NCBI GenBank assembly: GCA_964187785.1
Contig: OZ076409.1
Coordinates: 22,880,001-22,944,000, forward strand
Reading direction: 5' to 3'
Length of the DNA: 64,000 nt
DNA from: Amphiscolops sp. MND2022
Taxonomy: Eukaryota
Position numbers and translations under genes: made by a program. The notes under the pieces were generated by a model that made no database searches, was not told where the DNA came from, and was given only the letters and a program-made list of their open reading frames with translations. Positions 26,701 through 56,309 of this stretch are shown here, piece after piece (the first letter of the stretch is position 1; every line of letters begins with the position of its first letter).

Positions 26701-27207
26701 TAGTGAAAGTGGAACGTCAACCAAACATTGGACATGATGCTATTCAAGATCCAGTCACCCCGAAGACTAGTAACGCTGATAGCTTGAGTCCGGTGCTTGC
26801 CGAAGAAAATACCGCACTAACCAATGATAGACCGAAACGACTACGATCCCAAACCCAAAAGTATCAAGCAAGATTCACATGAGCTAACTGAAAGAGGGGA
26901 TGTGGTCACGTTATCGTCACTTATTGTTGTTCGGTCAACAACTACCGTTCGCTACCGAAGAAGGTACTCTAATTTTTTTCGTTCCGAGATTCGGTTACAT
27001 AACACCGAATAATGGAGACTTCACCGAGAACTGGTGAAAGAACTCAGATAAGCTCTTACATAATATACTTGTATTTTAACTGGTGCTAATTGTTTCGAAT
27101 ACTACATACTTTTTTGTACGGATCATATAAAAAGATAACAAATTGAAATCGAGAACCTAAATTGAACTGAGTTTAAAACAAATTCTTTTCATAACCACTT
27201 CACGACA
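23715..27207 (+). mobile_element. Decayed, gag-deleted Ty3/Gypsy LTR retrotransposon
   Basis: LTRs 23715-24032 and 26901-27207 (TGTGG...CGACA, visibly diverged), TSD TTTTA, PBS-like TGGTGTCCAGAAC at 24035, PPT AAAGAGGGGA at 26891-26900. Confidence 0.93.
24300..26882 (+). pseudogene. pol: pol pseudogene (RT-RNase H-integrase) with frameshifts and stops
   Basis: RT KIDLSTAYWQIPL and YRDD; RNase H TTDAS; integrase H-x2-H...C-x2-C, LHMD, VSDNG, AER motifs split over several ORFs. Confidence 0.92.
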
Positions 27208-28936
27208 TTTTATTATGTTTATCTAAAACTTTCTTGTGGATGTTGTATTCGGTTTTTATCAAGCTTGTCGAAAAAGAACATCCAAAATTTGGTGGCAAAC
27301 TAGAACTTTGAAGTTTTGCAGGTTTCGTTAGGGAACAGTTTATTTGAATGCAACTAAGGTGTTATCATTTTCACCGTCATTGTATTGCGAACTGACTTCA
27401 GTCACAATGTGTAGCTTCCAGCAAAAGGAGCATATATTAGAGCCGGAACAGGGCCAAGGTTACTTGGACAGGAGACATAAGTTTTTCTCTGGTTTACATA
27501 CTCCCCGGTCCGTAGTTTGTCGTCCTCAGCAAAGCAACCCAGAGTAGATGTCCATATTCTAGTTGTCGTCCAGTGATACTGCAGGAATCTAGAAGTTTTT
27601 ACCAGCCTACTCGGCTTTCCTAGGTTTTTTTCTAGATGTGAGTTATAGCAACATGACTCCAAAAAATTAAAAAATCTAGCATCATTTTGAAGGCGTCATG
27701 TTTGTTTGGGGGATTGATTCGGATGGCACTTTACTAATTAGTGAGGAAAATGTTCGCGATAAACTTTAAATTGCACTTTTTATGTGGTTAGCTTGGTACC
27801 AGTTTTAAACAGAAAGTGCAATTAGTTAGCACCGGTTTTTAGTTTGGCTTTGTTAACATGTGTTGTTTTGTCACCAAACTTGTGGACGTTACAATGCAAC
27901 CAATAAACTAGCGTCTTATTCAGCGTGACATTTGAGAAGCGGTGGTTACATCAGATGACTAATTGATATACAAGAGCTTGAGAACAACTTGATCGTGTCG
28001 TTAGCGAAAAGGGAAGTATTTTTGAATATTTTAAACGTAATAGTCTCAGCAGCAGCGTAATTTTGCTAGATTTAAATACCACATAAAGTTTACTGAATTT
28101 TCTACATTTTCTTTCAAGTTCGTATCATTCAATGTCTTGTCAGAAATAGAATGGGATTTCAACTGACCAGTGTCGAATTTCAGCATCTTTTGAAACGTAC
28201 AATCCTAACACTGTTTTCTGATAAATCTCATAAGGAATGACAAGCCGGGAAATACTAACGCGCTAAACTCTCCGTAAGAATGTCAGAAAAACAATAAAAA
28301 TTGCAGGCAAGTTTGAAGAAAATTCGAATGTCAAGAAATTGCAACAAGTGTAAATACACGTCAAGTGAAAATTTACTCCATGTTTTTCGTAATGTATATG
28401 AAATATAGACTTTACCATTGTAATGGTTTTGCGTCAGCCTTTTTCATTCGTTGCGTAGTGAGCAAAATAGCTCTACCAAAATCTCTAAAAGATAATTTTC
28501 GTAGGCGATGTGGGCGAAAAGTTGGAACACGAGCGCTATAGGCAGATGGAGATGATTTCGAACCTGGGCAAGACTATCTTTTTGGTGCAGGATGGTAATA
28601 TAGTAACGGCCATAGAACGGCCAAAGTCGGCGCTATATCTAAGGCTCAAAATTGTAAAAGGGGGACCCTTCGGGCTTTGTGAAACTCCAGCTGGTTGCAA
28701 AATATGGAAAAAAATTGAGGGGGAGCCCTTTGGGGACTTGAAAAAATTTCCCAAAAAAATTGAAAACTGAGATTTTTGAACAGTGTCACAGTGCCAAAAA
28801 AATGTAAAGGGGGGGCCCTTTGGGATTTTTTGACATCCATTGTGTTGCAAAATGTTGAAAAAAAGGAGGTTGACCCTTTGGAGCAATCCAAAAAGTTTTA
28901 AAAAAAGTCGCATAGTGCCGAAAAAATAGGGGCTGT

Positions 28937-30457
28937 TGTCGCGGCCACAGCGTTGCGATGGGTCCGGTGTGCACCAGTAAGAAAACAAACAACGCTTGTT
29001 AAAAACTTCCAAAACCCAAGGACTCATTTGCAAGTCATGTAGTTTGTTTGTTTTGTAAATATTTGTTGTAATCAGGGTCATTTAGTTGATTTATTTTGTA
29101 AAACTGATGTCTTAAAATGATTTGCCAAACCTTAAGAGGATTTAATGATGTTTTTAATTATTCCTGATGATCCTAATGCAGTGCTAATAGTTCATTTTAA
29201 TTAAGCAGTACCAATTGTATACGACATTGTGCGTTTTGAGTGCTAATGAGTATGCGGTACTATGCGCATATGCATCTTTCTGATTTTCATTATGCGTCAC
29301 TATGCGGTTTGAACAGTGACATTTACTCGACACTATGCATCTTTCTAACTTTCATTATACGTCACTATGCGGTTTGAACAGTGACATTTACTCGACACTA
29401 TGCATTTTTCATTATACGTCATCCTGCGGTCTGAGGAACAATGAGTGCTCGGTACTATACGTTTTTCGCTATGCTTGCTTTAATATGAAGGATTAACTTT
29501 GCATTTCCATATACAGTAGTATAAGTCCATGATATATCATTGTTTAACACCTTTCTAGGGTATTATAAACCTCGTTATCATTTCTGAATGTCATGGAAGG
29601 TAACTCATGAGATATAAATAGGATGACGACATTCTGACGAAGTGCTATTATTAGTTTTTCCTAAGAATGATGCTTGTAAAATTGCGTGTCATCTTTTGTA
29701 ATTTTGTACTTTCTTGGGGAAAAAGGAGCTAACACAACTGATATAACTTTCTTCAGAACCAGTTTGTTCTCTGATAACGATTACAATCTTTGTGCTACAT
29801 TTTGGGATCTTTGAACATTTCAAATTGATTTCCTTTGAATATTTGTCTTCAATTCAAATTCTTGACCCTGCAAAACAATCATTTTCTCTTGAGCGAAAAT
29901 GGGCAATAAGAGAAGTAGAAGGTCTAGAAGACTAGAAACTCCTTCCCCTAGCAGAGAAGAAGGTGTTGAAACTCCAAACCCAGGTAATATGACTTTAACT
30001 AATTCTAACTTAGTTGACCAAGAAAACTTAGGTCCCAATATCTTGGAGAATCAAATAACTGAACCCAGCGTAATTAGCAATGAAATACAAGTTTGGACAC
30101 AAGAAATGGAAAAGAGAAACAATGACAGAATAGAGAAGATGAGGGAGGAGATTCATAATAAATTCGATGCAATCTTAAGAGAAATCAAAACTAGTAAAAA
30201 TGCATCTACAATCACAAACCCAAGATCAGAATCTAATGAAACACAAAACAATCAGCCGTCGGGATCCAGAAATAGGTCTATAGGAGTTCGCGCATCAGAA
30301 AATGAAAACTCTGATTCTGAAAATGAAGATAATCATCCCATCAGAGCATCGAACATGCATGAATTAAGAGACCCAGCAAGACCCTTTTGCCAAAATAGAT
30401 TTGAACTAGATGAAACATTAGTTTCAAATGAAGACTCTGAGGAGGAGGATTATCACA
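28937..30457 (+). repeat. Element A 5' LTR
   Basis: TGTCGCGG...TATCACA; direct repeat of 43453-44973 with about five substitutions seen by eye. Candidate TATA box TATAAATA at 29613-29620; 57-65-bp tandem units at about 29270-29460. Confidence 0.97.
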
Positions 30458-31578
30458 TGGTGACAGGAGCTAACCGACAACTCCATAGACACAGTTCGCA
30501 AAACCCACAGTCTCTAAACGACACAACAGGATCCCACGCAGCCCAGAACACAACAACTTCATCTGCAACACCCCTTGACCCAGTCAATCAAATTGCCCTG
30601 GCAATAGAAAAATTAGCAAACAAAAATGAATCACAAACATTCTTTCACCCAAAAAACACACTCACATTTAATGGAAAAAATGAGAAAAATGAAAAATTTG
30701 AGTATTTTGAGGACTTGTTCCACACAACACTCAGAATGCAACCGAATCTTACAGAAGACATGAAAATCAATCATTTCCACGCCCACCTGAGAGGCCTGGC
30801 ACTGAAAACGTTCAAAAACATACAAAGAACGCCCACAACAACCTTAGAAGACATTCTCAAAGTTTTCCGACGAAAATACGTAAAACCGGAGTCCAGCGCA
30901 TCTGCCAAACACAGATTCAATAGACTCTTCTTTGACCCCGAAAATCAAAAACTCCCGGATTTCCTTGAAGAACTTGAGGAAAGCGCTGAAAAAGCGTTCG
31001 GGACTAATGCGCACCAAATGATAGAGAATTTACTCTACGCTAAAATGCCTCCCCACCTCAAAAAGTCCATTAATCAAGCATACCTTGAAAACGGCACATA
31101 CAGCCAAATTGTCAAACATCTCGAACGAGAGATGGAACTCAATGGATTGGAATCCGATGAATCGCTGGTCAAAACACAGATGACCGCAACTAAAAAAGAA
31201 CACAAAACAGACAACACTAACAAAAAACAAACAAACAAAACCAAATCACAAACGCCAAAATCAGTCCCAAACAAGACCCTCAAAGATGGCCAATGCCGTT
31301 ATTGTAAAGAAGAAGGCCATATGATGACTGATTGCCCCAAATTAGCCAAACGACGTAAACTTCAGGAAGATCCAGATGCAGACAAATGCGAAAATTGTAA
31401 CACCCCCGGACACACTGAAGAAAATTGCTACTTTGGCGAGAATATGGAAAATCGCCCACCCAAATGGAACCTCACAGACGCCCAGAAAAAAGTAATCGAA
31501 AATTACAAACAAGCCAAAAAACCCATTAAACCTAAAATGGAACAACTCCAACAATCCTCTTCGAAGGATTTAAACTAG
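29899..31578 (+). CDS. gag: Gag polyprotein (559 aa), first 186 codons inside the LTR
   Basis: Capsid-like region (TFNGKNEK...FEDLF) and two CCHC knuckles, CRYCKEEGHMMTDC and CENCNTPGHTEENC; homologous to 55760-57448. Confidence 0.93.
   Translation: MGNKRSRRSRRLETPSPSREEGVETPNPGNMTLTNSNLVDQENLGPNILENQITEPSVISNEIQVWTQEMEKRNNDRIEKMREEIHNKFDAILREIKTSKNASTITNPRSESNETQNNQPSGSRNRSIGVRASENENSDSENEDNHPIRASNMHELRDPARPFCQNRFELDETLVSNEDSEEEDYHMVTGANRQLHRHSSQNPQSLNDTTGSHAAQNTTTSSATPLDPVNQIALAIEKLANKNESQTFFHPKNTLTFNGKNEKNEKFEYFEDLFHTTLRMQPNLTEDMKINHFHAHLRGLALKTFKNIQRTPTTTLEDILKVFRRKYVKPESSASAKHRFNRLFFDPENQKLPDFLEELEESAEKAFGTNAHQMIENLLYAKMPPHLKKSINQAYLENGTYSQIVKHLEREMELNGLESDESLVKTQMTATKKEHKTDNTNKKQTNKTKSQTPKSVPNKTLKDGQCRYCKEEGHMMTDCPKLAKRRKLQEDPDADKCENCNTPGHTEENCYFGENMENRPPKWNLTDAQKKVIENYKQAKKPIKPKMEQLQQSSSKDLN
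30458..30472 (+). promoter_or_regulatory. Primer-binding site (probably tRNA-Leu type)
   Basis: TGGTGACAGGAGCTA directly abuts the LTR-terminal CA and is identical over 15 nt in element B (56310-56324). The tRNA identity is inferred from similarity to TGGTGTCAGGAG. Confidence 0.8.
31569..31575 (+). promoter_or_regulatory. -1 ribosomal frameshift slippery site U_UUA_AAC
   Basis: X_XXY_YYZ heptamer in gag phase immediately before the gag TAG; the -1 frame is open from here into pol. Confidence 0.85.
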
Positions 31579-34500
31579 AAACGCCACGCCTTAACAACAC
31601 AAACGCCGAAATAAAACCACAAGATGACTGTCAGCATCAAGTGGAAACAATAAATATTCAACTTAAACGACCGACTACCGAACCTGAACCTACTCCTCCA
31701 ACTCCTGTTCAATCTGAAACTCCCAGCACCTCTCCAGATCAATACTACGAACTCTTGAGAGATGCACCAGACAACTACTTCACAAAACAACAAACCCATC
31801 CTGAAATTGACCCAGACCTCAATATTCACCACGATTCACCTATTAAAAATCATGTCACTATCAAAACTTCTTGCAATGATCAAAAACAACCCCTTCTAAA
31901 TGAAGACCTAGCTGAACACCTACAATTTGACAAAGAACGCAACTTGTCATACCTACCAATTTCAACATCCTTGACATTGAAGCGCAAACGACATATGTAC
32001 TACATTCCAATGGACTTCCAAAACCTCACACTTGATGGTCTTATTGACACAGGAGCTCTCACAAGTGCAATCTCCGAACAAGACCTCAATAAAATCAAAT
32101 TGCTCGCAAACGATGCGATAAAAGAAACTGGTCCTCCACCAAACTTTCAAATTATGGTGGCAAATGGACAACTAGAAGTCCCCATTGGTACAGTATTACT
32201 AGAGTTCGAAGTCGCAGACTTCATGTTAAAGGAAAACTTCATCATCATGAAAACTCTACCAAACCCGCTCATCGGATTGTGTTTCCTTCGCCGAAACAAT
32301 GCAATTTTCGATGTCACACAAGGAATCTTAACCTTTCCTTACCTCTCAATGCAACTGAAACCCGATACCCAAACAGCAATACGGCAAGCAACACCATTGT
32401 TTGCAGAAAATACCTACACACTCAGGCCAGGCGAAACACTCGCTATAGCAAGCAAAATGCCTCACCTGATGGACCATAATGCAACTGGAATAGTCACTCC
32501 ATCACAACAATTTGAAAACCACGATAGTATTTTTATTACAGCATCACTTAGCACAGTTAATAATAATTCTATCGGCTACCAGATCATCAATTTTTCAGAA
32601 TTGCCATATACAATAACCACTGACACCCATTTAGCGGATTTCAAAATTCTGACCCCAGAACAAATCAAACACATCCAACCAGTAGACCCAGCAGTACTAT
32701 CGTTTATGATACAACATGAAGAAACCACCGAAGTCTACATCAACGAACTCCTCAAAGTACCACAACCAAATTCTGAACAAGAATCGTACTGGTTTCCTAC
32801 CCCAGACGACCCAGGCGATCCCGCAACATATACTCCAATACAACAACGTATATACAATGAACTTCTTGAGTTAAAAGAACTCGAAAAACTGAATCCACAT
32901 GATAATGAAACATCCAGGAAATCATTCCTCTCAAATTTCGACTGGACAGATACAACACTTAGTTCAGAAGAACGACAAGAGATTGAAGAGATTCTGGTCG
33001 AATTCCACGACATTTTCGCCAGACATCGCTTTGATATCGGTATAAACCGCGAATTCAAAGTCAAATTAACACCCAACGACGACAGACCAGCTTACAGCCA
33101 GAGTCTGCCAACTCCAATCAACCTCAAAGATGACATCACAGTAGAACTTGCGCTTCTACACAAGTACGGTATAATCACAACTCTACCGTTTTCCAAATAT
33201 GCAAGCCCGATTTTTGCACAACGCAAACCAAACGGGCGCCTTAGACTCCTAGTTGACCTCCGGAAAATCAATAATCTTATCACTGAAGATTACGCCAATA
33301 ATAACCACCCGGTAAGCACCCTATCTGACGCAGCCCAACACATGGCAGGAAAAAAGCTTTTCTGCAAACTGGATTGCTCCCAGGCTTACCACTGCCTCCA
33401 AATGGCCGACTACCAATCTATCCAAATGCTCGCGTTTAACTTTGCAAGCAGAACATTTGCTTATCGACGCCTTGCCCAGGGTCTCAGTCGATCTCTCTCC
33501 GCATTTTCCAGCTTCATGAGAGAATACCTAGACAGAGCAATTAAAGCAGATCAATGTGCCCAATATGTCGATGATATCGGCATAGCAGCAAACGACACAA
33601 AACAATTGTGTATAAACATCAAAACTGTTTTTGAATGCATCCGGAACGCCGGACTGAAACTCTCCATGTCGAAATGTCATTTCGGAGTCAAACAAGTCGA
33701 CTTTTTGGGACGCACAATCACACCAGATGGAGTTGCCCCTCAAGCCGACAAAGTGAAAGATTTTTTGGCAAAACTCAAATTCCCAAAATCAAAAAAGGCA
33801 CTTCAAAGGTATATCGGATTCTTGAATTATTACCGAAACTATATACCTCGCCTTTCAGAACGACTCACCCCGTTTTTCAAACTCCTCAAAGAAACCTCCA
33901 AATTTTATGTCCCTACAAACTTGGTCGAAGACTTTACAAACCTCAATCAATTTTTGGAAAATTCTTGCCAACTCGCGCTGAAACAACCCTTGAAAGACAA
34001 ACAACTCATAGTCATGTCCGATGCAAGCTTCACAGCTGCAGGATATGCCATCATGATTGAAGACGATCCCAACCAGAAGCTTCAATCCAAACGAAAAACC
34101 TACGCACCCATTGCGTTTGGATCAAAAACGTTCAATCCAACACAAACGAAAATGTCAATTTATGCAAAAGAATTCCTCTCAATATATTTTGCATTCGTAG
34201 AGTTTGGACACCTCATGTGGGGGAGTACCTTCCCTGTCATCGTGTTCACGGATAATCGGTCTGTAACCCGGTTTTTTCAAACGAAAATGATTCCTCCAGC
34301 GCTTTGGAATGCATGCGATTATGTACTACAATACAATTTTGTAATCGCCCATGTAGCTGGATCGATGAACACAGCCGCCGATTTCTTATCTAGAACCGAA
34401 AGTAACCCAACCGAAAAGCTCGAAATGACAATTCGCAACGATATTCACACAAAAGCAATTGAAGTGATTATACAATCAACTGGAATTGTCGAAGAAGAAC

Positions 34501-36464
34501 AAATTTACATCCTTCCTGATGAAGAAATCGATGAAAATCAACTATGGGAAGAAAAACAAAACACTCGCAATCAAGCACAAAACGAAACTCACAACGACCC
34601 AGAGAACGACGTCTCTGAATTACAGCAATTTCACAAACCCACATCCGGATTGATCTCCTGCTCCTCTGGACACTTCAAGGACAATGCGAGGATACGCCTT
34701 GAACAGAACAATGACATAGTCCTTCGAAACCTGAGAGCCAAAATAGAAGGCGAACCGTTTGATGAAAACGAATTAGCTTCCGATTTCAGATATCAACACT
34801 ACTTACAAAACATAACACGAATCGAGATTAAACACGAAGTTCTCACACGCAAATACTATACAGATACAGGAATGATCTCGCATTATCAAATCCTCTTACC
34901 AATCCAACTTCTTGAAGAACTACTTCAAGCCCTCCATGGACATAACTCAAACCATCCAGGAATTACCAAGATGATTCAAGAAACACGTCAAAAATATTAT
35001 TACCCATGTATGGCCAAATACATAAAGAAATGGGTCAGTAATTGTCAGATTTGTATACAAACAAAACGTATCAACAATGATCTCCTCAGAACCGAACTCC
35101 TTAATTGTCCCGAATGGGACCTTGGACCGGAAGACATCTTACAGATGGATATTTTGCCAAACCTCCCCCCAAGCGGAGGCTACGATCACATCATCACAGC
35201 AATAGATGTCTTCTCAAGGTATTTGTTTGCTTATCCTGTGACTCGAATTACCGCAACAGCAGTTTCAAAAGTCATAATGGATATCTTATGCAAACACACC
35301 TACCTTCCAACAACTATAATCACGGATCTAGGCACTCAATTCAACGCACAAGTCACTCATGAAATTGCGGCAGTGCTTGGAATCGAAATGAAACATGCCA
35401 CAATGAAACATGCACAAACCATAGGACTCTTAGAAAGAACCCATGCCTCAGTTAAAACACACCTAAAAGCCGCCACAGGCGAATTCAGGAACAACTGGCA
35501 CAAATATCTTCCTCTAGCAGTCCTTAATCATAACACAACATACCATGCATCACTCGGTTGTGAACCCTCACGAGTTTTCCATGGCCGCATACCACACAAT
35601 ATCCTTGACTACAAACTTGGATACAATCCAAATCCGAGGTATCAACCACAAACTGACATTGCAGAAGAAATTCAAAAGCGCATGAGAACACTTTTAGACC
35701 AAACCAAAAAGAATATCATGCAATCTTACCTAAAATACAAGGCCTACTACGATAGAAAAGCAAAAGCAGCCCAGTTGGAGACAACAGATTACTGCTATAT
35801 TCTTAATCCAAAAGCCGATACACAAGCAACGAAAATACCATTCCGAGAATTCAGATGGTGTGGACCTTATAAAGTTGAAAAAGTGCTCCCTAACAATAAC
35901 TACATTGTGAGGAGACTTGGCACAAATAAAACCCAACTACTACATCGGATTCGTTTGCGGAAATTCACACCGCAGGCCCCTTTAGCAGACATTTTTGTTC
36001 GCGAAACCGACTGGCAAAAAGATGATCAAATGACTATAGCAAATGATGATCTATATGCCCAATCATGGAACACGAATTTTGGAGCAAATCCATTTGATGA
36101 CATTCCCTCAGATGCAATACACAATACTGAGGATACCGAATATGTCCCAATTCAAATACCCGACAATAGCCGCCCACCCTCCCCAGTATCTTCAAAAAAT
36201 AGCGGGGGGAGCCCAGTGGATCAGACCACTGAACCAGATCAAAATCACGGAAATCATGCTGATGAAATCCCACAACAATCAAATGATGATAATACCCAAA
36301 AAACCCGAAAAGATGTAAATAACGCAACAAACAATGATAATCAAAAAACCCCAGAAAACTCCCAAAATACCCCATTGCAAGAAGAACCCATAAATACCCG
36401 TGGTGAAAAATACAACCTACGTCCTAACCCCAACCCAAATTACTCTGACACTTATAGATACTAA
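31569..36464 (+). CDS. pol: Pol polyprotein: aspartic protease, dUTPase-like segment, RT, RNase H, integrase (intact)
   Basis: LIDTGA; KLDCSQAY and YVDD; SDASF/KEF/TDN/AADFLSR; H-x5-H...CQIC, MDIL, TDLG, LER. Uninterrupted frame. Confidence 0.97.
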   Translation, partial: FKLETPRLNNTNAEIKPQDDCQHQVETINIQLKRPTTEPEPTPPTPVQSETPSTSPDQYYELLRDAPDNYFTKQQTHPEIDPDLNIHHDSPIKNHVTIKTSCNDQKQPLLNEDLAEHLQFDKERNLSYLPISTSLTLKRKRHMYYIPMDFQNLTLDGLIDTGALTSAISEQDLNKIKLLANDAIKETGPPPNFQIMVANGQLEVPIGTVLLEFEVADFMLKENFIIMKTLPNPLIGLCFLRRNNAIFDVTQGILTFPYLSMQLKPDTQTAIRQATPLFAENTYTLRPGETLAIASKMPHLMDHNATGIVTPSQQFENHDSIFITASLSTVNNNSIGYQIINFSELPYTITTDTHLADFKILTPEQIKHIQPVDPAVLSFMIQHEETTEVYINELLKVPQPNSEQESYWFPTPDDPGDPATYTPIQQRIYNELLELKELEKLNPHDNETSRKSFLSNFDWTDTTLSSEERQEIEEILVEFHDIFARHRFDIGINREFKVKLTPNDDRPAYSQSLPTPINLKDDITVELALLHKYGIITTLPFSKYASPIFAQRKPNGRLRLLVDLRKINNLITEDYANNNHPVSTLSDAAQHMAGKKLFCKLDCSQAYHCLQMADYQSIQMLAFNFASRTFAYRRLAQGLSRSLSAFSSFMREYLDRAIKADQCAQYVDDIGIAANDTKQLCINIKTVFECIRNAGLKLSMSKCHFGVKQVDFLGRTITPDGVAPQADKVKDFLAKLKFPKSKKALQRYIGFLNYYRNYIPRLSERLTPFFKLLKETSKFYVPTNLVEDFTNLNQFLENSCQLALKQPLKDKQLIVMSDASFTAAGYAIMIEDDPNQKLQSKRKTYAPIAFGSKTFNPTQTKMSIYAKEFLSIYFAFVEFGHLMWGSTFPVIVFTDNRSVTRFFQTKMIPPALWNACDYVLQYNFVIAHVAGSMNTAADFLSRTESNPTEKLEMTIRNDIHTKAIEVIIQSTGIVEEEQIYILPDEEIDENQLWEEKQNTRNQAQNETHNDPENDVSELQQFHKPTSGLISCSSGHFKDNARIRLEQNNDIVLRNLRAKIEGEPFDENELASDFRYQHYLQNITRIEIKHEVLTRKYYTDTGMISHYQILLPIQLLEELLQALHGHNSNHPGITKMIQETRQKYYYPCMAKYIKKWVSNCQICIQTKRINNDLLRTELLNCPEWDLGPEDILQMDILPNLPPSGGYDHIITAIDVFSRYLFAYPVTRITATAVSKVIMDILCKHTYLPTTIITDLGTQFNAQVTHEIAAVLGIEMKHATMKHAQTIGLLERTHASVKTHLKAATGEFRNNWHKYLPLAVLNHNTTYHASLGCEPSRVFHGRIPHNILDYKLGYNPNPRYQPQTDIAEEIQKRMRTLLDQTKKNIMQSYLKYKAYYDRKAKAAQLETTDYCYILNPKADTQATKIPFREFRWCGPYKVEKVLPNNNYIVRRLGTNKTQLLHRIRLRKFTPQAPLADIFVRETDWQKDDQMTIANDDLYAQSWNTNFGANPFDDIPSDAIHNTEDTEYVPIQIPDNSRPPSPVSSKNSGGSPVDQTTEPDQNHGNHADEIPQQSNDDNTQKTRKDVNNATNNDNQKTPENSQNTPLQEEPINTRGEKYNLRPNPNPNYSDTYRY

Positions 36465-36682
36465 AAACAACTGACAATCCCTGACTCATTACTAGTACTC
36501 AGAAAACAAATACAGAAGAAACTCTCTTTTTTATCCTTCCTTTTTCAAATCAGCACTACGAGTGCGTTTCTTCATCCTGTTCTCCGATTCCTTTAACAAA
36601 TAAATACACAGGATACAGAGTAACTCAACAATCAGAAAACTAAAAGAAGATTATAAATATAACAAGATAATGCAGACAACAG

Positions 36683-39600
36683 TCAGTTTTTCTTGCTTTT
36701 CGGAGCTTTAGCAACCACTCTCTTTGAAGTGCCCTCTTGGGTCGACTCTGAGCAACGACTAAGACTAACATTAAGTGTACCCAATGAAGGATCAGGGGAT
36801 GGGGAACTATGTACACTGCTGCGGCGACTCACACTTGGAGTTGTTGAAGTAGAGGAAACGGTAGTTTTCTCAGCACGTAGCACAGCTTGTCGGTAACCAG
36901 TTTCCAATTTACCTTGGAGAGAAGTTTTCCGGGCATTGCTTCCCTTCAGGAAATTCCAAACCGAGAACTTTTTGTCCAATAACAAATCAGTCCCACGTCC
37001 CAACAGGCGAAAAGCACGGCTGATCGCCTTGGAATTTCGAAATAAGCTGGAGACGTGTGGCACAGTCTGATATGCTACCTGAAGACTAAACACACAAGAT
37101 TCAAACGTATGTTTATCCGACTCAAGATCTGGCATAGGTACCTTGAATGATGGCGGTATTTCCACGAATGGAACTAAACAAAGACACGAATGTTTGAATA
37201 GTCGCATCAACTCGGGTCTACACTGGATTTCATAATGTTCAACGACAAACTGAATCCAATCATCATGCTCTGGTACGGGGCTTGTCCTCAGCTTGGTTAC
37301 GAAGGAACGATACTGGCTTATCTGCTTCACCTTGTCACTAGAAGAGAATAGTCCGGTAGAAACAAAATGTGAAGACAACTTTTCAATCGCATCAACATAC
37401 ACGTCTTCTGGGCTCTCGAGCATCACCGAGGAGTCAAAAGCAGAGAGTCCCCGCAACAACTTTGACTTTACAATCCCGTGACCCATCAACTGTTTGCAAT
37501 AAGCCTTGCAGAAACTCACTGACTGGTCAATAAAATTGCTTGGCCGAGGGAGTTTACTTGAATACACCAAACGGTGAAAATCCTCATTCAAGACGAAGTC
37601 GTCTGCTGTTTTAAACGGCAAATTAGTTGAATCCAGGTCCAAATTAAGATAAGAATCCCATTCCGAGATATTTCCCAAAATGCTGTCAGGAAGAATGTTC
37701 TGCATCTGACTGTAGATAAAAACCGCAAATTGGTTGTATATGCGGAACCCTCCATCAAGTCGTTTCTGTATGTCCGAAAACGCCGAAGTATCTAAAACAC
37801 ACAAAAATCATCTATTATAGAAACCACGCATGCCTTCATGAAGAAGAGAACTAATCACGCATAGTACACGCTTTTGATAAGCTTGATTAAACACATCATA
37901 TAGCTCAATGTATAAACACCAGGGCTATAGGGCTTTACGCGGTTCAGAGAACAATGAATACTCGACACTATGTTGAGTAGGAGATATTGACTATGCGGTC
38001 ACTATGCGGAACGAGTAGTAGTGATTATACGTCACTATGCGGAATCAGCAATGCAGCTGGATTTGGGAGTTCTGAGCAAATACGATTGGTCATACGCAAT
38101 TATGCGGATTGAGAACTGATGATTACTCGTGATTATTCAGAAGAAAACAAAAAGCACGTGTCACTTATGATGAGTTAAATGAATGACAATCCTGATGTTC
38201 GAAGTTTTGGAATGAGATGGTACTTATAGTACATTACTCCAAAAAGAGGAAAACAACGTAACAAAAGATGAAACCGCTGTTATAGTATAAAGATAAATTG
38301 ACTAACAATGGTCAAGGACACATCTGATAATGAACAGACGGGCCAGATAAGCTGTGTCTAGACGAAAACACTCGTCCAGCGTATTGGGCTGAAAGGGAAA
38401 AGATTAAGAAATGGATTCAGATTACAATGGAAGGAGCTGGGATAATAATACCTACCTCTCTCATATGGAATCGATAGATAGGAAGGCAGGCAACTTGTTC
38501 TAGGTGATCCTGCACGTGATTCCAGTTGTTGGAAAGCTGCTCAATCAAAGAAGAAGCTTCAGAAAGGGAATAGCTCAAGTTTGTCACACACTAAACAAAA
38601 TAGGGGAAGATGTGCAAAACATCACAATGGAAAAGAAAAAAACCAAAGTTGAAAACCTACTTTGTGCAGAAGGGGTAATTTCTCCAGCCAATCTCTGTCT
38701 AGCGCAGTCCGCAATTTCATCAGTAAATAATCCAAGATAGAACGAAAATCGTGTCGTTCTATGACCTGAGCGGTAGGGCCTGCTAATGTTCGCTCAAATT
38801 CGTTCGGTCCAAATGGGTTGACAGTCGAAGGGGGCTTTAATCCGGGCAAACAAGACGATAGACAATCATTTAATTTGTCACTGAATCCAATGAGGGATAC
38901 ACAATTTGGGAATGTTTCGAACAGACTGAGAAAGGAAGCCACGAGAGAAAGGACTTTCCTTGGTAATAACATTCCCCGAGGGGCGCCCCCTATGCACACT
39001 CGATACAGCACATTCTCGGCCCAAAAGCAAAGAATAACGTATGTGGCAACAGGAGTATGTTGTATGGCCAATGAATAGTACCCCGAAGAAGATATAGACC
39101 GTACACAATAGTCCATGAGTTCTCGGAACATGTAGACTATGATACCCTGCAAACAAAGAAAGTGTTAAGGTATTGGAAAATGGGGAAACCTTCAACTTAT
39201 AGTGTAACTTCAAGGTAATTGAAACTTTTAACGAAGGAGAAAGAATATGGTTAAATCATTGTGTGTTAAAAAATTCACAAAGAAACTTACGAAAAGACGT
39301 TCATTGCTCCAGTTCTGATACGATAGCCGATCACTTGCTGTAAGTCTGACCAACTCGTCATACATTCCGGTCAAACTGGCGACGTTACCTCCGTGCCTTA
39401 ACCCAAATTCCAGAATGTTTATCTGCGAGAATATCTTTTCAGTTGGGGTTGTGGAAGCACTAAAATCGGGTACTGAATCTTGTCCTACTAGAGGTCGGTA
39501 CGTATCCAATTGAGGAGGAATTGGGTAGGTGTCCTTCGCCTTCTTTTTGGCTTCCTGTAGTGAAATTCCAAGCAATTCATGTTCGTCTTTGTCGTAAAGG

Positions 39601-40994
39601 GGCATTCCTGGAATCTCCATGCGGATTCAGTGTTCCCTTACTAGGTGAGATTCGGACCTGTAATGGGATATCAGTTCCAGACTCCCACGACTCATCAACG
39701 ATAATTCAACACGGCACACCCTACACCACCACTTGTAAGGTGATAACTCTTGATCCAGTGGACCTGTGGCAGAGAATTTCAAAACTGGGTGTCTTTTAAA
39801 CATACTACCAGTTAAGGAGTATCTAGGGCGGCGTCGTTTCCCCCGTACTTCAGGGAGATTACGCTCTGAGTAAGTCGGCGCAGTTCTTGAAGTAGATTGG
39901 ACAAGTGCTTCTTCTTGGCTTGATGTAGTCAATAAAGCAGATTGCGGTACATCATCCACCAAAGTAAGTGCCATAGTGTCTCCACATCCAGTCTCTTCTC
40001 CGGTGATGAAGGCTTGTGGGATCCTCCCAAGGAAATTGTGGAGAAATAAGACCTCCTGTCGAGTTACACTAACATTGGGGAACTCTGATCTGGGAATGTT
40101 ACCCAAGCCTTCCGTGTCATGACCAATTGTTTGTCCTTGGTCATTAGCCGTGCTAAGAGAAACCGTGGTTTCGGGTATCTGCCCGGTAGTGAATCCTGTT
40201 GCACCATCCTCACTAGGAGTGACGTACTGTTCAAACTGAAGAGAATGTATTTGAGAATTACCCTGCGTGATGAAATCATCAAGTACCCCTTGAGGGAACG
40301 TCGTCATTGGCTCATTCATAGCTTTCGTTGGGGTAACGTTCACAAATGGCGGCGAATTACTTCGTGAAGCTAAATCCCCTTTTTGACTTGGGTTACCCTG
40401 GGAAGTAACTCCAGGAGGCTCTGTGGATGTATGTCCACTCGGTGGCTCACCTGCTACTTCTTCATTGATCTGCAAAGTTGGGGTATTGGGGGTATCCACT
40501 TCCTCTGTAGCCTTAGAAGTCTGTGGAGTCACAACGTTCAAAGATGTGTAGACTTTGGCAGGAGAGTTGTTTGAAGTGGTTTGGACGTTTTGGGACGATC
40601 CTTGTTCAACTGAAACAATTGATCTGTTGATTAACAAAAGAACAGATTTCACAAGCAATAACCGTTCTTAACTGCCTTGAACCGGACGCGGGGACAGGAA
40701 ATAAAATTGGAACGGAAGTTGTTTTAAAATTGGAAGCGGAAACGTTTCAAAAAATTTGAACTTGACAAAGATAATAATCTTGTCATTTTCTTTTTGCTAG
40801 CCTGGCCAGCTTTGCAAATCAACCAAATTCAAAACAAATCAAAATGAAACAGAATTAAAACGAAATACGTTGAACTTACGGGATGACGTCTCAGGCGGCG
40901 GATCACTGTGCCAGAAGTCGTCACGTTGCAGAGGATCATAACTCTTCCGGGATCTTCTTTTCCCTCCGGGGCTTCCCTCTTGTGGTGAATCCAT
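36683..40994 (-). CDS. Antisense six-exon gene, about 1081 aa, Zn finger plus hAT-transposase-like body; one in-frame TGA at 39627-39629
   Basis: Exons 40994-40880, 40609-39291, 39146-38661, 38590-38456, 38388-38307, 37791-36683. All five introns are GT..AG with pyrimidine tracts; phases 1,0,0,0,1 join in frame (3246 nt, 1082 codons). WWCRVC...LISHYRSESH motif. The last exons are homologous to element B. Confidence 0.82.
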
Positions 40995-42440
40995 TCTTTT
41001 TTACAGAACCAGGAAGTAATTCAGGAAAATTCTGATGCAAGCTCAGGGTATTTGTTCCAGAAGTGAACGAGGAGAAAATACAATAGATCAGAGTAAGGAA
41101 ATTGAAAACAGATAAAAGGGGAACTAAAGATGAAGAATCCAAGATTTGGAAGATTGTGTTTAATATACTAGAACTTTAACTGAACAGACTAAATGAACTG
41201 GTAAGAAACTTGAAGATTCAAAAGAAACAGTAAAAGGCGTGGCGTAACGTAAATGCAATAGACAAAGGCAAAAGAGCAAGTGAAACAATTGTGCGCAAAT
41301 ATGCGTAGAGAATACTGCAATATGATTGGCTGTTCAAATGTCAATTACGTCTGCCAGCGTAATTGATTGACTCATCTGACTTCTGCCAACAACGTTGGTA
41401 TACATATATGCTGAATGGAATGAATTAGAAAGCGAGAGTATGCGGCAGTATGCGGATCTACCACCAACGACCACTCGACAATATGCGTATTACTGATTTA
41501 AATTATGCGGCAGTATGCGGATCTACCAATGATGGATATACGGCAGTATGCGGATTGAGCATTGACGTATACTCGACATTTAGCGGTTTTCGCTGTATGC
41601 ACGACAGAGATGAATTAACACCGTAGACCAACAAGAATGAGCAAATGGAGTGATATTACGTAATGGAACTGAAGAAACTGTGTGTTTACCACAACTGAAA
41701 GTTGAGTGGCAATATTGATATACTGTATACGTGCTTAGTTACCCTCTTTAATGACGTTTAGCCTGTGATACCAATGCCCATTTGGAACCAATATGTATGT
41801 ATGTAATAATTTGAACTGTTGGCGTTTTCTGAAACCCATAAATCATTTACCAAGAGATACTGGAATTCACCCGGAACATTAATTAACTGTACTTGCATTT
41901 TAAATGCAGGACTAACATTATTGGGTGTCTTTCCTAATGATAAAATTCAACTCACTAACGGACCTTAGATTAGATTGGAACACGTTTATTAACATCCTTT
42001 TCCTTTTATAAAATAGTCATGTAAAATCAAATAAATTGATTCTGAATTACTTTATTGAATATTTTCATGAAAGTATTTTGTTTTCAGCATCCCTGATATC
42101 AAGTCAAATTTGTTTATGTACGATTTAAATACTGGTGGAAGGTTAAGAAGGGTGATGATAAAAGGAAATCAGTTGGAGTGCTAAACGTGTTACCTTTTAT
42201 GGAAGTTGTTTATGACCAATTGTAAAAGGAACTCGTGATATGAGTCTAGGTGGAAACCCCATGTAAGGGTGTTTAGGAACCTAAAATCATGACTCTCAAT
42301 TTTTCCGCGGGTTTTCCGCTGAAAACGAAAAGTGCGAGAAACTCCATCATCATATGGTCCATATTAAACTGTGATTCAGTTGCTTTCAATTTCGAACTCT
42401 ATTTCTGTTCATCTATAAATTTTCAACTAAAACCTGAAAA
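40995..42440. promoter_or_regulatory. Candidate internal bidirectional promoter region between the antisense gene and ORF X
   Basis: Non-coding interval between two divergent ATGs, with clustered TATGCGG / ACTCGACA motifs (41436-41590) also found in the LTR. Function is inferred. Confidence 0.5.
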
Positions 42441-43496
42441 ATGGACTCACTGCAATTTAATCTCGATGAGGATCTGGGCTACTCACCCATCTCCCCTGAC
42501 GTGATAGACATCTCCAGTGAATCTGGGGAAGAGTTCATTGTTGAACCTGGCAACATTGCCCAGCTAGACGAAAAGTTCAGGGTCAATACAATGGGATCAA
42601 ACATCATGACAGCTTTTGTGGGCTCTGCAACTGCTTCTTTGTTCCCCCCTTCAAACTACGTGGGACAACAAGAATCCATCAATACTGCAGGAACCCACAT
42701 CGAAAGGGAAATCATGGAGTTGATAGAGGAGGGCCCTTCCTCTTCTCCAGCATCTCCGCTGTCTTTCATCGATTCAGAATTCGAAGGACCGGGTACTTCT
42801 CCAGTAGCAATTGCCGCAGAACCCAGAGCACAGCTTAATAATTATGGTCGGCCAACTGCAGCAATACTGCCCACACCAAGGGTCCCATTGCAACCGCCAA
42901 ATGAAACTGTTAGACCAGTGCCGACTTACCCTTCAAACTATGTGCAGAATGTCCCTAATTCTCACCAAGCACAGACAGTGGACACAAGCACAGAAGGGGC
43001 TACTAACGTACCAACATATGAACTACAAGGAATTTATCCGCAAGCCGCATTCATCCCAGAAGAATTAACACACCCTGTTACGAATGACATTACACCAGTA
43101 GTGATACATCTGCCCCCTAGAAACATGGGAATTGTCCCCGCCAACTTCAATGGTCAATTCCACCAAGTAGTCCAAGCTGGATTTCCATTCAACATTCTAC
43201 ATAGTACTAACATCCTTATGATACCAGGCAATGAGAGACAAAATTTCAGATTGTTCCCAACAGTTATGCCAAACGTCTCCGGATATTGTGACTGGTGTGG
43301 CCGTACCTTTGATCAAGTCGCACTGGAAACATTGGGGGACTATCTTGGCGCTACCGCTTACAACGAGGAAACAGTCAGGGACCGTGGGGTGCGTTCTAGA
43401 GCCTTCATAGATGGTTTTGAAGCGGCGTTGTTTATCTTCAAAAATGCAGGTCTGTCGCGGCCACAGCGTTGCGATGGGTCCGGTGTGCACCAGTAA
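42441..43496 (+). CDS. ORF X, unknown accessory protein (351 aa), ends inside the 3' LTR
   Basis: ATG-initiated long ORF in AT-rich DNA: acidic/Ser N-terminus, Pro/Gln-rich middle, C-terminal CDWC...CDG region. No obvious signal peptide or TM helix. Confidence 0.75.
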   Translation: MDSLQFNLDEDLGYSPISPDVIDISSESGEEFIVEPGNIAQLDEKFRVNTMGSNIMTAFVGSATASLFPPSNYVGQQESINTAGTHIEREIMELIEEGPSSSPASPLSFIDSEFEGPGTSPVAIAAEPRAQLNNYGRPTAAILPTPRVPLQPPNETVRPVPTYPSNYVQNVPNSHQAQTVDTSTEGATNVPTYELQGIYPQAAFIPEELTHPVTNDITPVVIHLPPRNMGIVPANFNGQFHQVVQAGFPFNILHSTNILMIPGNERQNFRLFPTVMPNVSGYCDWCGRTFDQVALETLGDYLGATAYNEETVRDRGVRSRAFIDGFEAALFIFKNAGLSRPQRCDGSGVHQ

Positions 43497-44973
43497 GAAA
43501 ACAAACAACGCTTGTTAAAAACTTCCAAAACCCAAGGACTCATTTGCAAGTCATGTAGTTTGTTTGTTTTGTAAATATTTGTTGTAATCAGGGTCATTTA
43601 GTTGATTTATTTTGTAAAACTGATGTCTTAAAATGATTTGCCAAACCTTAAGAGGATTTAATGATGTTTTTAATTATTCCTGATGATCCTAATGCAGTGC
43701 TAATAGTTCATTTTAATTAAGCAGTACCAATTGTATACGACATTGTGCGTTTTGAGTGCTAATGAGTATGCGGTACTATGCGCATATGCATCTTTCTGAT
43801 TTTCATTATGCGTCACTATGCGGTTTGAACAGTGACATTTACTCGACACTATGCATCTTTCTAACTTTCATTATACGTCACTATGCGGTTTGAACAGTGA
43901 CATTTACTCGACACTATGCATTTTTCATTATACGTCATCCTGCGGTCTGAGGAACAATGAGTGCTCGGTACTATACGTTTTTCGCTATGCTTGCTTTAAT
44001 ATGAAGGATTAACTTTGCATTTCCATATACAGTAGTATAAGTCCATGATATATCATTGTTTAACACCTTTCTAGGGTATTATAAACCTCGTTATCATTTC
44101 TGAATGTCATGGAAGGTAACTCATGAGATATAAATAGGATGACGACATTCTGACGAAGTGCTATTATTAGTTTTTCCTAAGAATGATGCTTGTAAAATTG
44201 CGTGTCATCTTTTGTAATTTTGTACTTTCTTGGGGAAAAAGGAGCTAACACAACTGATATAACTTTCTTCAGAACCAGTTTGTTCTCTGATAACGATTAC
44301 AATTTTTGTGCTACATTTTGGGATCTTTGAACATTTCAAATTGATTTCCTTTGAATATTTGCCTTCAATTCAAATTCTTGACCCTGCAAAACAATCATTT
44401 TCTCTTGAGCGAAAATGGGCAATAAGAGAAGTAGAAGGTCTAGAAGACTAGAAACTCCTTCCCCTAGCAGAGAAGAAGGTGTTGAAACTCCAAACCCAGG
44501 TAATATGACTTTAACTAATTCTAACTTAGTTGACCAAGAAAACTTAGGTCCCAATATCTTGGAGAATCAAATAACTGAACCCAGCGTAATTAGCAATGAA
44601 ATACAAGTTTGGACACAAGAAATGGAAAAGAGAAACAATGACAGAATAGAGAAGATGAGGGAAGAGATTGATAATAAATTCGATGCAATCTTAAGAGAAA
44701 TCAAAACTAGTAAAAATGCATCTACAATCACAAACCCAAGATCAGAATCTAATGAAACACAAAACAATCAGCCGTCGGGATCCAGAAATAGGTCTATAGG
44801 AGTTCGCGCATCAGAAAATGAAAACTCTGATTCTGAAAATGAAGATAATCATCCCATCAGAGCATCGAACATGCATGAATTAAGAGACCCAGCAAGACCC
44901 TTTTGCCAAAATAGATTTGAACTAGATGAAACATTAGTTCCAAATGAAGACTCTGAGGAGGAGGATTATCACA
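43453..44973 (+). repeat. Element A 3' LTR (contains a second copy of the gag leader ORF 44415-44996)
   Basis: Direct repeat of 28937-30457, followed by TSD GCTGT. Confidence 0.97.
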
Positions 44974-47505
44974 GCTGTGGGGGATCCTTAGTGTGATTTC
45001 GAGGTTCTGGACGTCTGTTTTGTTTCTTGTTTTTTTCGTTTTGGACGCGCTTTTGAGGTTCGAGTTCGAAGTTGTTGAGGTTTGACGTTGTTGAACAAAT
45101 GAACAAAAAAGTGGACCTTACGCGTCTAAAAAATATAAAAAACTACCCACTGTAAGAGTCGGGTACATTTTCTACTAAAATGCGCCGACTAAAAAAGGGC
45201 ATTACATATCGAGATTGACTTCAAACGAGGACCAGTGTTTCGGATTTCAAAGTTTCCAAAACTATTTCCATACCACGTCTCCCTTCAAATGTTTTTGAGG
45301 CTCATACGCTGTCACTCTTTGTTCTTCCCTTGTTGAACATGCTTGAACTTTTTTCATGTACTTTAATGTTGCCAGCAACTTTTGTTATGATAATCTAAAT
45401 ATCTTACGGAAACTTTAATGCGTTAATATTTCCCTGTTGTCGCCAACTTTTATCAAGCTGCTTTAAAGAATCATCAAAGTTTTGGCGGCAATTTCAAGCT
45501 GTGAAGTTCTGCAAGTTCCAATATGCATCAGTTCTAATTTTAAATGCAGCTTAGACCTCAACAATTTTGCCGCCTTTTAAATGCAAATTAACTTCATTCA
45601 CAATGTAAACAGCAAACTAGCGTCATCTTCAGCGTCCTATTTGAGACGCGGTGATTGAATCAATAAAAAAAGGGATCACAACGTGATCGTGTCCGTAAAA
45701 GAAGGGGGAAATATTTTCAAATTTAATTGCAGTAATGGAAAATGCAGTGTAATTGTACAAGATTTACCACCGGAACCTTACTGAATTTTCTAGGTTTTAT
45801 AAAAAATTACCCTGCATGCAGGCCTGCAGCATGTAAATAGTTCCAGGAGTCTCAACTAGGGTTATATTTTCAAGTCGAAATATTTAGTCCTCATGCTACT
45901 GTTTTGAAGATGTAACTGAGAGATGCATTCATGCACCCTAATGCTAGCTTGTCAGCAATATCAATAGTACGTTATTTTCAGTGAAAGATAATCGGCAACA
46001 ATTTTTCGGGCATTAATCAATTTTTTTTCGTAATCACAAAAAAATAGAATCTTGTTTTTTATGATTCAAATTATTGGATTTTTAATTGCTAGATATTTTA
46101 GTTTATCGGCGACTCTTTTTTGACGCTCCGTGGAAAATTGGCGAATTCGCACTTCGTTGAACTGTGAAGCCATTGGTTACTTTGCGATAAGTTTTCCACC
46201 AGCAATTTCGAACCAATTTTGACCAAACACAACATTTATGAAAGGCATTATCAACGGCTTCATGATTCCACGCACGTTTTACGGTCTATCTCAGTTATGC
46301 AATCTACTGAGATAACTGACTTCATGTCAGCAATGAAAAGAAACGTAGTCAAGTAAAAATATGTTACGTTCTCAAAAACCCTACCAGCTTATTGAAATCG
46401 TAATGTCAAGATCGATGGTTAGACTTTGAACCATATTTCGATAGATCAATGTTGCATTTGCCGTACTTCAGATGTTGGATTTTTATTGAGTTCTGAAGAA
46501 TTCTGAAATTATCAAGTTAACTCAGCGTTTAGATTTTATTAATTATGAATAGGGATATGAAAAGTTCTTCACAATACAAAAGATAAAGTGAATACAATGA
46601 AGTAAAATCCGAAGTGCTATGGAACTATCAAAAATTTAAACCCTAATTCAGAATGCAAAGGTCATCTAAGGTGAACAGGTCCTTGTGCTTCAAGCCCCAA
46701 GAGGCCACAGAATTTCCATTTGAGTTTAAATCGAAAAAATATCTTGAAAAACTGCAAAGTGTATGAAGAGTGTATTTTCATGGCAGCAAAACGTGAAACG
46801 TGAAGACTTCTCAAGAATTAATTTTCTAAAGAAAGACTACATGAAATCAAAAGATAAATTCAACATTCAACGTGCTGACTTAGCGTTCGGATGGATTTCC
46901 TACATCAAGATGCCAGCAAAAATTTAGGGTTCTTCAAAAAGGCTACTGGAGAAAATTTTCATCGATCAAATGATTTTTTGTTGACTGGCTAGACTTTTTG
47001 TGGCACCGATACATTTCTTTACAGTTGAAAAATGTTAGCTGAACTAACAATAATTGTATGCAATAACCCATATTGTTTTCCAAAATCTGTGAAATTAGCA
47101 AACTTTTTCGGTTAATCAAAAAAATTAAACATGATTTAGCATTCTAAAGTCACCGAGAAACGCTTTTGCAAAACTCATTTACAAGCGAATTAAGAAATTC
47201 TTAGCCTAAACGACTCTGTCTGCTGAGAAGTTAGAGTGCACACAGACTCGAACAGTATGGTTGCTCTCATTGACGTGAAGTCAACATTTGATTCGGTAGA
47301 CCAAAGCTGGCTCCATGCAAAACTAAAGCGCTCCAAATTACTCGAATATGCAGAAAATTTGCTATCTTCGAGACTATCATTAAAATTCGTGTATCAGGTG
47401 CCAAAGGTCTCAATTGAAGCGAAATGAGTAAATTGTGTCCACGAGGATGAAATTTGGGACCATTTTTGTTTTTGATAATTACCGTCAATATTATGGTGAA
47501 TCAAT

Positions 47506-54749: not shown

Positions 54750-56309
54750 TGTCCCAGGCGTCCGCCTGTGATGGCAACACATACTCAATCTGCCATAGCT
54801 ACAAGAAAGCAGAACCCTTCACCCTTCCATTAAATTAGAAAACTTACAAGGAAAACTATTATTGTTGCTCTAAAAAGTCATGTAAAACTCTATATATTTC
54901 ATTTTGTGCAAGTTATATTATGTAATTCTATGCATTAATACGAGTTAATTGGACACCAAGGCGTACAGGTAAAGGAAACGCGTTCAAATGTTTTCTTGCC
55001 TGTCGCCTTGGTCCGCAAGTCCGACTAACTCGTCATCCAATCATAGCGCAGTGTTATGTAACCTTTACTCGTGCTGGCTTAATAGAATTAAAAGACTAGA
55101 CGGCTATATGCCGCCTGCTAATAAAGCGCTGGGCTGTACCAGTCTATTGGACACTGAGTCCGCGCTTTAATTGAGAGTGCTATTCTATCTAGCAGTACTG
55201 GTTATGTAATAATTAATCTTTTGATAGCTAATAAAAGGCGCTATTAGTCCTCAAAGGACTGATTTAATATTTTAGACTTAGTTTGATGGTGTTGCTTTAT
55301 ATGTAATTTGCGCGATATATTTAGAATATATGTAAAATTACCATCTATACATGTAATAAGCATTTCATACATGTAATATGTATTTCATACATGTAGCACG
55401 TTGATTAGTATGCATGTAAGCAGTTACTTGTCCTAACGGACTCATGGTCCCACCGCCATATTTGCCGCCAAGAGGGACCTTTGATCTACATGATGTAATG
55501 TTGACGTTGCCTGCTATTTATAGATTGTAGCTATATTTAGAAAGCCTTTAAGGCTATTTTTAGATTATGACCACCATTTTATTGAGTGTCATGCAAATTC
55601 AAATATATATAACCGGGACTGGTGGGCTCGGGGACAGAATTAACCTGATGATACTTTGATGTGTTACTGTTGCGAATTGTTTATTAAAACTACCCGTTCA
55701 TTTTCACTTTGCAAGCCCAAGATATTAATTTAAATTCTTGCCTCTTGCAATAATCTCTTATGCCTTCCACTAGACGACAGAAAGCCAAAGCTAGGAGATC
55801 TAGAGAAATGGACATACTGTCCGACTATGATAACCTAGATGTGATGCTGGGAAATGAAAATAACAATCCCATTGAAAGAGAGCTAGCTGAAGCAATAGAT
55901 CAGTCATCGGCCCACGGGGACGGTGATACGAACGTGTACCATGAAAATGAGTTTAGAGGTTACTTACATGAAAATGAACCTTTGAGACAAAACGAAGTCA
56001 GGCAATCCTTTGAAGCCTTTTCAAGTGAGTTTAATCTTAGATTGTCTCAAGAAATGGAATCTATGATGTCAATAATGCATAGCCAAATAAATAGGGCTAT
56101 ATCGACAGCTATAGCTGAAAGAGTTATTCCAGAAATCCAGAATATTGCAAACTCGATGTCCTCTATGGGACACAGGGACACTGAGGCCAGTTCGTCTCCA
56201 AATAGTCAGGAGAACAGGGAAAGCGCACCCGGGCCTAAAATAAAAATTGCAAAGAAAGATTCAAGATCTGTAGGAGATTTAAGAGATACCATGGGTCATG
56301 GTTCTTACA
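54750..56309 (+). repeat. Element B 5' LTR (inferred, about 1560 bp)
   Basis: Ends TTACA before the PBS. The start TGTCCCAGGCGTCCGCCTGTGATGGC parallels TGTCGCGGCCACAGCGTTGCGATGGG of A. The partner LTR is outside the window. Confidence 0.7.

Follow-up and report, generated by a model that had tools for sequence, protein, structure and literature searches.

Antisense open reading frames (ORFs) between pol and the 3′ long terminal repeat (LTR) are known from plant Gypsy elements, where their origin and role are unsettled (PMC7264820). The plant ORFs carry TRP28 or PMD, the latter related to PMDs borne by Mutator elements (PMC11963269, PMC4408406, PMC9289625), and LTR elements of rotifers are known to take up env, GDSL and DEDDy ORFs (PMC5408684). 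Transposases can also activate their own copies, TnpA being transposase-derived (10.64898/2026.08.24.746577), and activity of hAT transposases requires an Asp-Asp-Glu (DDE) triad together with a CxxH motif (PMC4763223). Here we describe one young ~16-kb Ty3/gypsy LTR retrotransposon, at 28937-44973 of a 64,000-nucleotide stretch of Amphiscolops sp. MND2022 (contig OZ076409.1, positions 22,880,001 to 22,944,000; hereafter the window, whose numbering is used throughout), in which pol and the 3′ LTR are separated by ~7 kb of additional DNA that holds a sense ORF (ORF-S) and an antisense gene of very probable hAT-type origin. Like the antisense ORFs of plant Tat, Retand and Grande Gypsy elements, which are conserved and nuclear, have their own promoter and lie near tandem repeats, the gene is found antisense in the pol-to-3′ LTR interval. 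The plant ORFs, in contrast, are small accessory domains, whereas the gene described here encodes a whole intron-bearing, hAT-side transposase with a recognisable catalytic fold, in an apparently animal genome.

A single six-exon model (40994-36683, minus strand, 1081 codons) fits 41 of 41 copies, namely the window copy and 40 fetched, partly from 140 scored matches, from a genome of 1.07 Gb in 1929 contigs; these copies were mostly free of stops in the last exon, and the sample is thus biased toward intact ones. The parts of the gene are as follows.

40880..40994, minus strand: exon 1, 115 nt, its ATG kept in 41 of 41 modelled copies
39291..40609, minus strand: exon 2, 1319 nt, with the fast-evolving low-complexity N-terminal region, KRRRPR at 39822-39839 and a C2H2 finger at 39645-39731
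38661..39146, minus strand: exon 3, 486 nt, RNase H-fold strands b1-b4
38456..38590, minus strand: exon 4, 135 nt
38307..38388, minus strand: exon 5, 82 nt
37792..38306, minus strand: intron 5, 515 bp, phase 1
36683..37791, minus strand: exon 6, with the end of the helical insertion domain, the C-terminal hAT-type region and a basic tail

Inspection of the 205 splice junctions in these copies reveals 197 GT-AG, 2 GC-AG and 6 altered sites. Exon 3 measures 486 nt in 36 of 41 copies, exons 4 and 5 hold their 135 and 82 nt in all 41, and subfamilies whose proteins are 55-72% identical to that of copy L031 agree in splice sites, phases and exon lengths. The ratio of nonsynonymous to synonymous substitution rates (dN/dS), taken from six pairs at unsaturated synonymous sites, most values being saturated, is 0.03-0.07 for exons 3-6, 0.13-0.14 for the tail and 0.21-0.29 for the N-terminal 290 residues. 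Given the 197 GT-AG junctions and the low dN/dS of the core, the gene is not a product of chance; it is a real, conserved, spliced gene model, and its family is present as hundreds of mobile copies. Models are open throughout in 25 of the 41 copies, three of them with an altered splice site. The window copy is a broken one, since it has a single in-frame stop at 39627-39629 (codon 366, exon 2).

An earlier note on this DNA, made by eye from the letters, had quoted a series of peptides, all of which were located on the minus strand in the same order as quoted: the zinc finger, YYSLAIQHT (39054-39080), YVILCFW (39021-39041), NCVSLIGFSD (38877-38906), LIEQLSNNWNHVQDHL (38501-38548), LARLFIIRCVLDH (38308-38346, linked onward by the intron to TSAFSDIQ at 37766-37789), LRGLSAFD (37433-37456), WIQF (37247-37258) and RPELM..CLCLVP (37169-37219). 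They are spread over three frames, which the conserved GT-AG introns bring together. The range then proposed, 36683..39760, lies within the gene but stops short of its start at 40994. Frameshifted decay in place of splicing was considered and rejected, as the breaks fall at identical GT-AG sites in every subfamily.

The suggestion that a class I element captured a class II (hAT) transposase is supported by two fold searches, a profile-profile bridge and language-model neighbours. When AlphaFold models of exon 3 and of exon 6 were compared with 48,161 chains, Hermes came top both times, the matches falling in the right gene order with modest Z scores of 6.3 and 5.1, respectively. The exon 3 model adopts an RNase H-fold catalytic domain, and a large helical insertion separates the positions of the second Asp and the Glu and leads into a C-terminal hAT segment. 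A finger of putative BED type, strands b1-b4, helical insertion and C-terminal segment stand in the same order as in Hermes (PDB 8edg) and other hAT transposases. Unlike those, the protein has lost DDE and CxxH and has gained ~290 low-complexity N-terminal residues, and the gene, which has neither terminal inverted repeats (TIRs) nor an 8-bp target-site duplication (TSD), is moved by reverse transcription in an LTR element; a search for TIRs and an 8-bp TSD around it in the window gave only scattered low-complexity 9-mers between the flanks. Its closest sequence relative is a group of transposases with intact DDE residues (loci L161-L280; relatives of the group are matched at 24 places in the same genome), mostly one long ORF, which share a similar finger spacing and have intact catalytic motifs (FDESLN, MDGPNVN, CGLH, HRWLE, ERGFS). 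The family profile aligns with this intact group over 514 columns starting at the finger (E 2e-10, ~14% identity), and the group itself matches hAT profiles; in Pfam, PF05699 or another hAT family was matched by 0 of 8, and around 34 short loci, 3 of them non-members, no TSD-flanked TIR pair was found. The finger is an invariant CxxC...H...H that aligns with that of the intact group and has no zf-BED match, a reversed control scoring equally for the finger piece alone. Language-model neighbours are the ZBED5, FAM200, GTF2IRD2, ZMYM1-like and Kat1 families, and a relic of ERxF persists at the expected position in P0136, a distant relative.

Several searches were negative. The Pfam search that the earlier note had proposed came back negative, with no hAT family in any exon, and neither any of 15 members nor any of 47 distant relatives matched Dimer_Tnp_hAT (PF05699). 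Profile comparison with hhalign gave no signal against a Tip-type (108 sequences) or an Ac-type (15) hAT profile, which as a control match one another at E 4.5e-19. PDB sequence searches with four family profiles returned nothing significant. The structural comparison with Hermes was borne out in the first rank of Hermes but not in Foldseek, where exon 6 had no match at E 0.001 against PDB or viral models, and DUF4371 went unmatched in the genome of the window, with the control silent as well. Because the Pfam search fails and the Tip- and Ac-type profiles are unmatched, the hAT homology must be a remote one; all evidence considered, we hold a hAT-type origin with high confidence.

Loss of the catalytic residues was analysed in 122 aligned family rows, many of which may originate in this genome or a closely related one and which are not independent. 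The first Asp is mostly replaced by Gln, as originally suggested: the column holds Q in 85 rows, E in 12 and D in 2, and in the window copy Gln29 of exon 3 (39060-39062) closes strand b1 and aligns to the Asp of FDESLN. The likeliest column for the second Asp, after strand b4, holds G in 60, D in 33 and N in 22 of the 122 rows, with DG in one row, and the window copy has Gly at this probable position (38886-38888). CxxH after the second Asp is seen in 0 of 122 family rows versus 41 of 44 rows of the intact group. At the third position, ERGF of the intact group aligns to PPxF of the family, with Pro at the Glu-equivalent of the window copy (~37154-37156); the reported absence of ERxFS holds, an ERxF-like motif appearing in 1 of 84 rows (P0136). 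The Trp of the RW-equivalent is retained (38688-38690). In the intact group, 38 of 44 rows have the first Asp and, of the 15 rows extending as far as the Glu, 13 retain it; the second Asp was the criterion by which the group was selected. The canonical triad positions are lost both here and in a second carrier family described below. Residue counts of this kind (first Asp mostly Gln, CxxH absent, ERxFS lost) support the view of the earlier note that the protein is dead, and catalytic inactivity is accordingly graded as highly probable on sequence grounds, a shade below the hAT origin itself. With the catalytic residues lost and no TIRs around the gene, the protein would be a descendant of active hAT transposases, not a member of them.

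Comparison among copies indicates that the antisense gene is exchanged between elements as a cassette, as judged from the alignments. In three pairs (L031/L062, L043/L069 and L045/L065), ORF-S is 95-98% identical and the antisense protein 54-56%, and trees of the two conflict at starred branches. The identity of L062 jumps from ~70% to >90% near 41.7-42 kb of the window, placing a recombination breakpoint near 41.7 kb (L022, L024, L025 and L030 were set aside in this comparison). Integrases 94-100% identical are paired with exon-6 sequences 63-100% identical among the matches listed, although slow integrase evolution alone could explain this mismatch. The cassette pattern fits diversified accessory modules.

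The non-coding DNA of the element contains arrays of a short motif, TATGCGG, which occurs 20 times in the window where 3.1 are expected. Fifteen copies, all on a single strand, are placed as follows.

29251..29372, plus strand: three TATGCGG in the 5′ LTR, within a 65/33-bp tandem array
37992-38107, plus strand: four TATGCGG in intron 5
41439-41553, within 40995..42437: five TATGCGG upstream of the antisense gene
43767-43888, plus strand: three TATGCGG in the 3′ LTR

TATGCGG is the commonest 7-mer of intron 5 and upstream DNA combined in 14 of 15 copies. The corresponding DNA of the second family has none, and the LTR of that family repeats ATGTAAT in the window as well as in 2 of the 3 copies fetched. 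VANC (VANDAL) and TnpA (Spm) are element-encoded DNA-binding factors whose motif arrays occupy introns, intergenic DNA and terminal non-coding DNA (PMC5735166, 10.64898/2026.08.24.746577), and the layout of the motifs seen here matches the arrangement of VANC targets in VANDAL elements (PMC5735166). VANC and TnpA, in contrast, serve DNA transposons of their own class, the accessible main text of 10.64898/2026.08.24.746577 containing neither 'retrotransposon' nor 'LTR', and the motif described here is a candidate binding site.

These features suggest the following course of events. An ancestral Ty3/gypsy element would have acquired a hAT-type transposase gene head-to-head with pol. Its introns would outlast retrotransposition because the gene is antisense to the genomic RNA that is reverse-transcribed, on which they would stay unspliced. 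Cutting chemistry would then have been lost, with the nuclear signal, C2H2 finger and whole transposase scaffold retained under strong selection, leaving an accessory gene most likely expressed from its own antisense promoter. Its protein may enter the nucleus and bind as an oligomer to short repeats (TATGCGG in the first family) in the LTRs, intron 5 and its own upstream DNA, where it would keep the element transcribed or shield it from silencing. The fast N-terminus, KRRRPR, invariant finger and kept scaffold suit a putative nuclear DNA-binding oligomer with an effector tail. We assign a probability of roughly 0.5 to a self-encoded regulator acting on these repeats; a DNA-binding role in regulating the element, taken by itself, has slightly better than even odds, and activation is favoured over repression by about two to one. 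TATGCGG was picked post hoc and another factor may be what binds it, and flanking DNA shows no CpG depletion; demethylation is therefore not claimed. CpG transitions are found in 0 of 17 motif columns versus 11 of 79 other non-coding CpG columns, a sample too small to serve as a test of protection.

Retention of the whole scaffold, more than a finger, with basic nuclear signals at both ends, would also be expected of an integration helper: bound to chromatin or to DNA of the element, the protein would guide or import the pre-integration complex in the manner of chromodomains or retroviral accessory proteins. Motifs in the LTRs, which are the ends of the complementary DNA (cDNA), agree with such a role, but others cluster at a distance from the cDNA ends, within intron 5 and in the DNA upstream of the gene, and the pairing of near-identical integrases (94-100%) with variable exon-6 sequences (63-100%) suggests no tight protein-protein fit, so that we consider a helper unlikely. 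Slightly less likely again is a brake or weapon, by which the protein would repress its own element and spare the host, or poison rival DNA transposons as a dominant-negative subunit. Antisense genes of retroelements can regulate in either direction (PMC7264820), 24 matches show that relatives of the intact group occur in the same genome and cassette shuffling fits competition between elements, whereas ~14% identity to the intact group makes mixed oligomers improbable and young open copies are plentiful.

An active site rebuilt from other acidic residues, by which the protein would still nick or process DNA, might be sought in the nearly invariant E130-R131-H132-D133 and D139 of exon 3, where the RW-equivalent Trp is also kept. 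This ERHD block aligns, however, with the RRED helix of the intact group, off the strand ends that bear catalytic Asp, and with the canonical positions gone in both families we judge an enzyme highly improbable. A chance resemblance of a host zinc-finger gene, or of another DDE superfamily, to hAT is marginally more improbable still, in view of two separate models that rank Hermes first in matching gene order, the 514-column match from the finger onward and the ERxF relic of P0136. Two other ideas were rejected: an env-like role, in view of the antisense orientation, nuclear signals and RNase H fold, and a passive nested insertion, in view of the missing TIRs and low dN/dS.

The carrier is assigned to Ty3/gypsy by its LTRs, short TSD, gag and the pol order protease, reverse transcriptase, RNase H, integrase; gag and pol are both open, and its two 1521-bp LTRs are 99.7% identical, with 5 differences and TG...CA ends.

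28932..28936: left TSD, 5 bp, GCTGT
28937..30457, plus strand: 5′ LTR, 1521 bp, TG...CA, containing the gag start
29893..31578, plus strand: gag frame (zf-CCHC, weak Ty3 capsid), starting within the LTR and crossing the primer-binding site at 30458
31536..36464, plus strand: pol frame, 1642 amino acids, protease-reverse transcriptase-RNase H-integrase in Ty3/gypsy order
40995..42437: non-coding DNA between the divergent antisense gene and ORF-S
42438..43496, plus strand: ORF-S, 352 amino acids, with an acidic N-terminus and C-terminal CxxC region, stopping inside the 3′ LTR
43453..44973, plus strand: 3′ LTR
44974..44978: right TSD, 5 bp, GCTGT
55754..62377, plus strand: gag-pol belonging to a different Ty3/gypsy family (the second family) that shares this layout
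62614..63798, minus strand: frame containing the last exon of the second-family homologue of the antisense gene, 24% identical

The gag frame begins ~560 bp into the LTR and crosses the primer-binding site (29893-30470, 44409-44973), as in the second family, and each 3′ LTR therefore holds a 5′ fragment of gag. An AATAAA on the plus strand directly 3′ of pol (36599-36604) might end the gag-pol mRNA ahead of the antisense gene; the minus strand has neither AATAAA nor ATTAAA at 36300-36700. No clear polypurine tract precedes the 3′ LTR at 43431-43452, a junction spanned by ORF-S. Non-coding blocks at 40700-40820, which includes a 23-bp GGAA-rich tandem repeat, and 41300-41600 are more conserved among subfamilies than neighbouring DNA and may be promoter elements; Rfam gave no match over the whole element, these blocks included. 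ORF-S (~350 amino acids) sits just before the 3′ LTR and divergent from the antisense gene in both families (42438-43496; L102:5235-6239), which share its C-terminal CxxC region (E 4e-10). It matched nothing in Pfam or PDB, and a long opposite-strand frame stands at its place in 40 of 40 fetched copies.

The last exon of the second-family antisense gene matches the first at 24% identity (E 7e-13), which is also the identity of the cores, and has 133 scored genome matches at 89-100%. Its exons of 486 and 217 nt (217 being 135+82) have phases 0, 0, 1 like those of the first family in 3 of 3 fully modelled copies; in a fourth, L110, the expected donor is absent. An integrase match lies within 3 kb of at least 76 of the 140 exon-6 matches noted above, on the opposite strand in 76 of 76, as scored among 150 integrase matches listed, all of at least 94% identity. 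Among 1.84 billion cluster representatives, a profile search identified 462 relatives, and none of the 10 looked up has an informative name. One of these is at most 49% identical to anything scored in this genome, and the gene family therefore probably exists in further genomes too, as far as sequence identity can tell. An exon-6 tree places 33 family rows and 13 intact-transposase rows on opposite sides of one long branch. A JGI metagenome scan with exon 3 gave no relative, P0136 was not found in the genome of the window with the query used at E 1e-25, and a search for longer, annotated full-length relatives gave none, which is weak evidence.

Elsewhere in the window, a 2344-bp unit is repeated about three times at 97-100% identity (49213-54704), and a decayed reverse transcriptase-integrase remnant of another LTR element (24374-26425) lies between repeats at ~23714-24032 and 26900-27207. 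A family of dispersed repeats (7005-7723, 10757-13017, 16409-17316, 28722-28912), whose 116-124-bp subrepeats run in both orientations, looks like a miniature inverted-repeat transposable element or a Helitron, and the Ty3/gypsy element is inserted beside one copy.

An accessory antisense ORF is of a known kind, but the crossing of a whole enzyme scaffold from class II to class I is unusual. In the accessible literature searched we found no description of an LTR element with an entire, inactive hAT-type transposase as its cargo, Repbase reports and subscription papers lying outside its scope, where it may be annotated; spliced antisense cargo escapes ORF- and Pfam-based repeat annotation. Gypsy antisense extra ORFs lack a clear origin or function according to PMC7264820. 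The origin of the present gene can be traced and a candidate motif proposed as its target, which makes the idea of transposases as ready-made sequence-specific regulators (10.64898/2026.08.24.746577) testable in a retrotransposon. Tentatively, and in our estimate doubtfully as a whole, a class I element may have domesticated a whole class II transposase once, long ago, as a sequence-specific activator or anti-silencer, the dead enzyme having since diversified into numerous exchangeable cassettes, recombining on near-identical gag-pol, recognising LTR and intron repeats and helping to explain abundance in a gigabase genome. Transposase domestication is normally done by hosts: ZBED5, FAM200, GTF2IRD2, ZMYM1-like and Kat1 likewise put a hAT scaffold to a new job, but are host-recruited fixed genes, whereas here the recruiter is another mobile element. 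That is to say, another transposon appears to have domesticated a transposase across the class I/class II divide, with selection acting through deep divergence.
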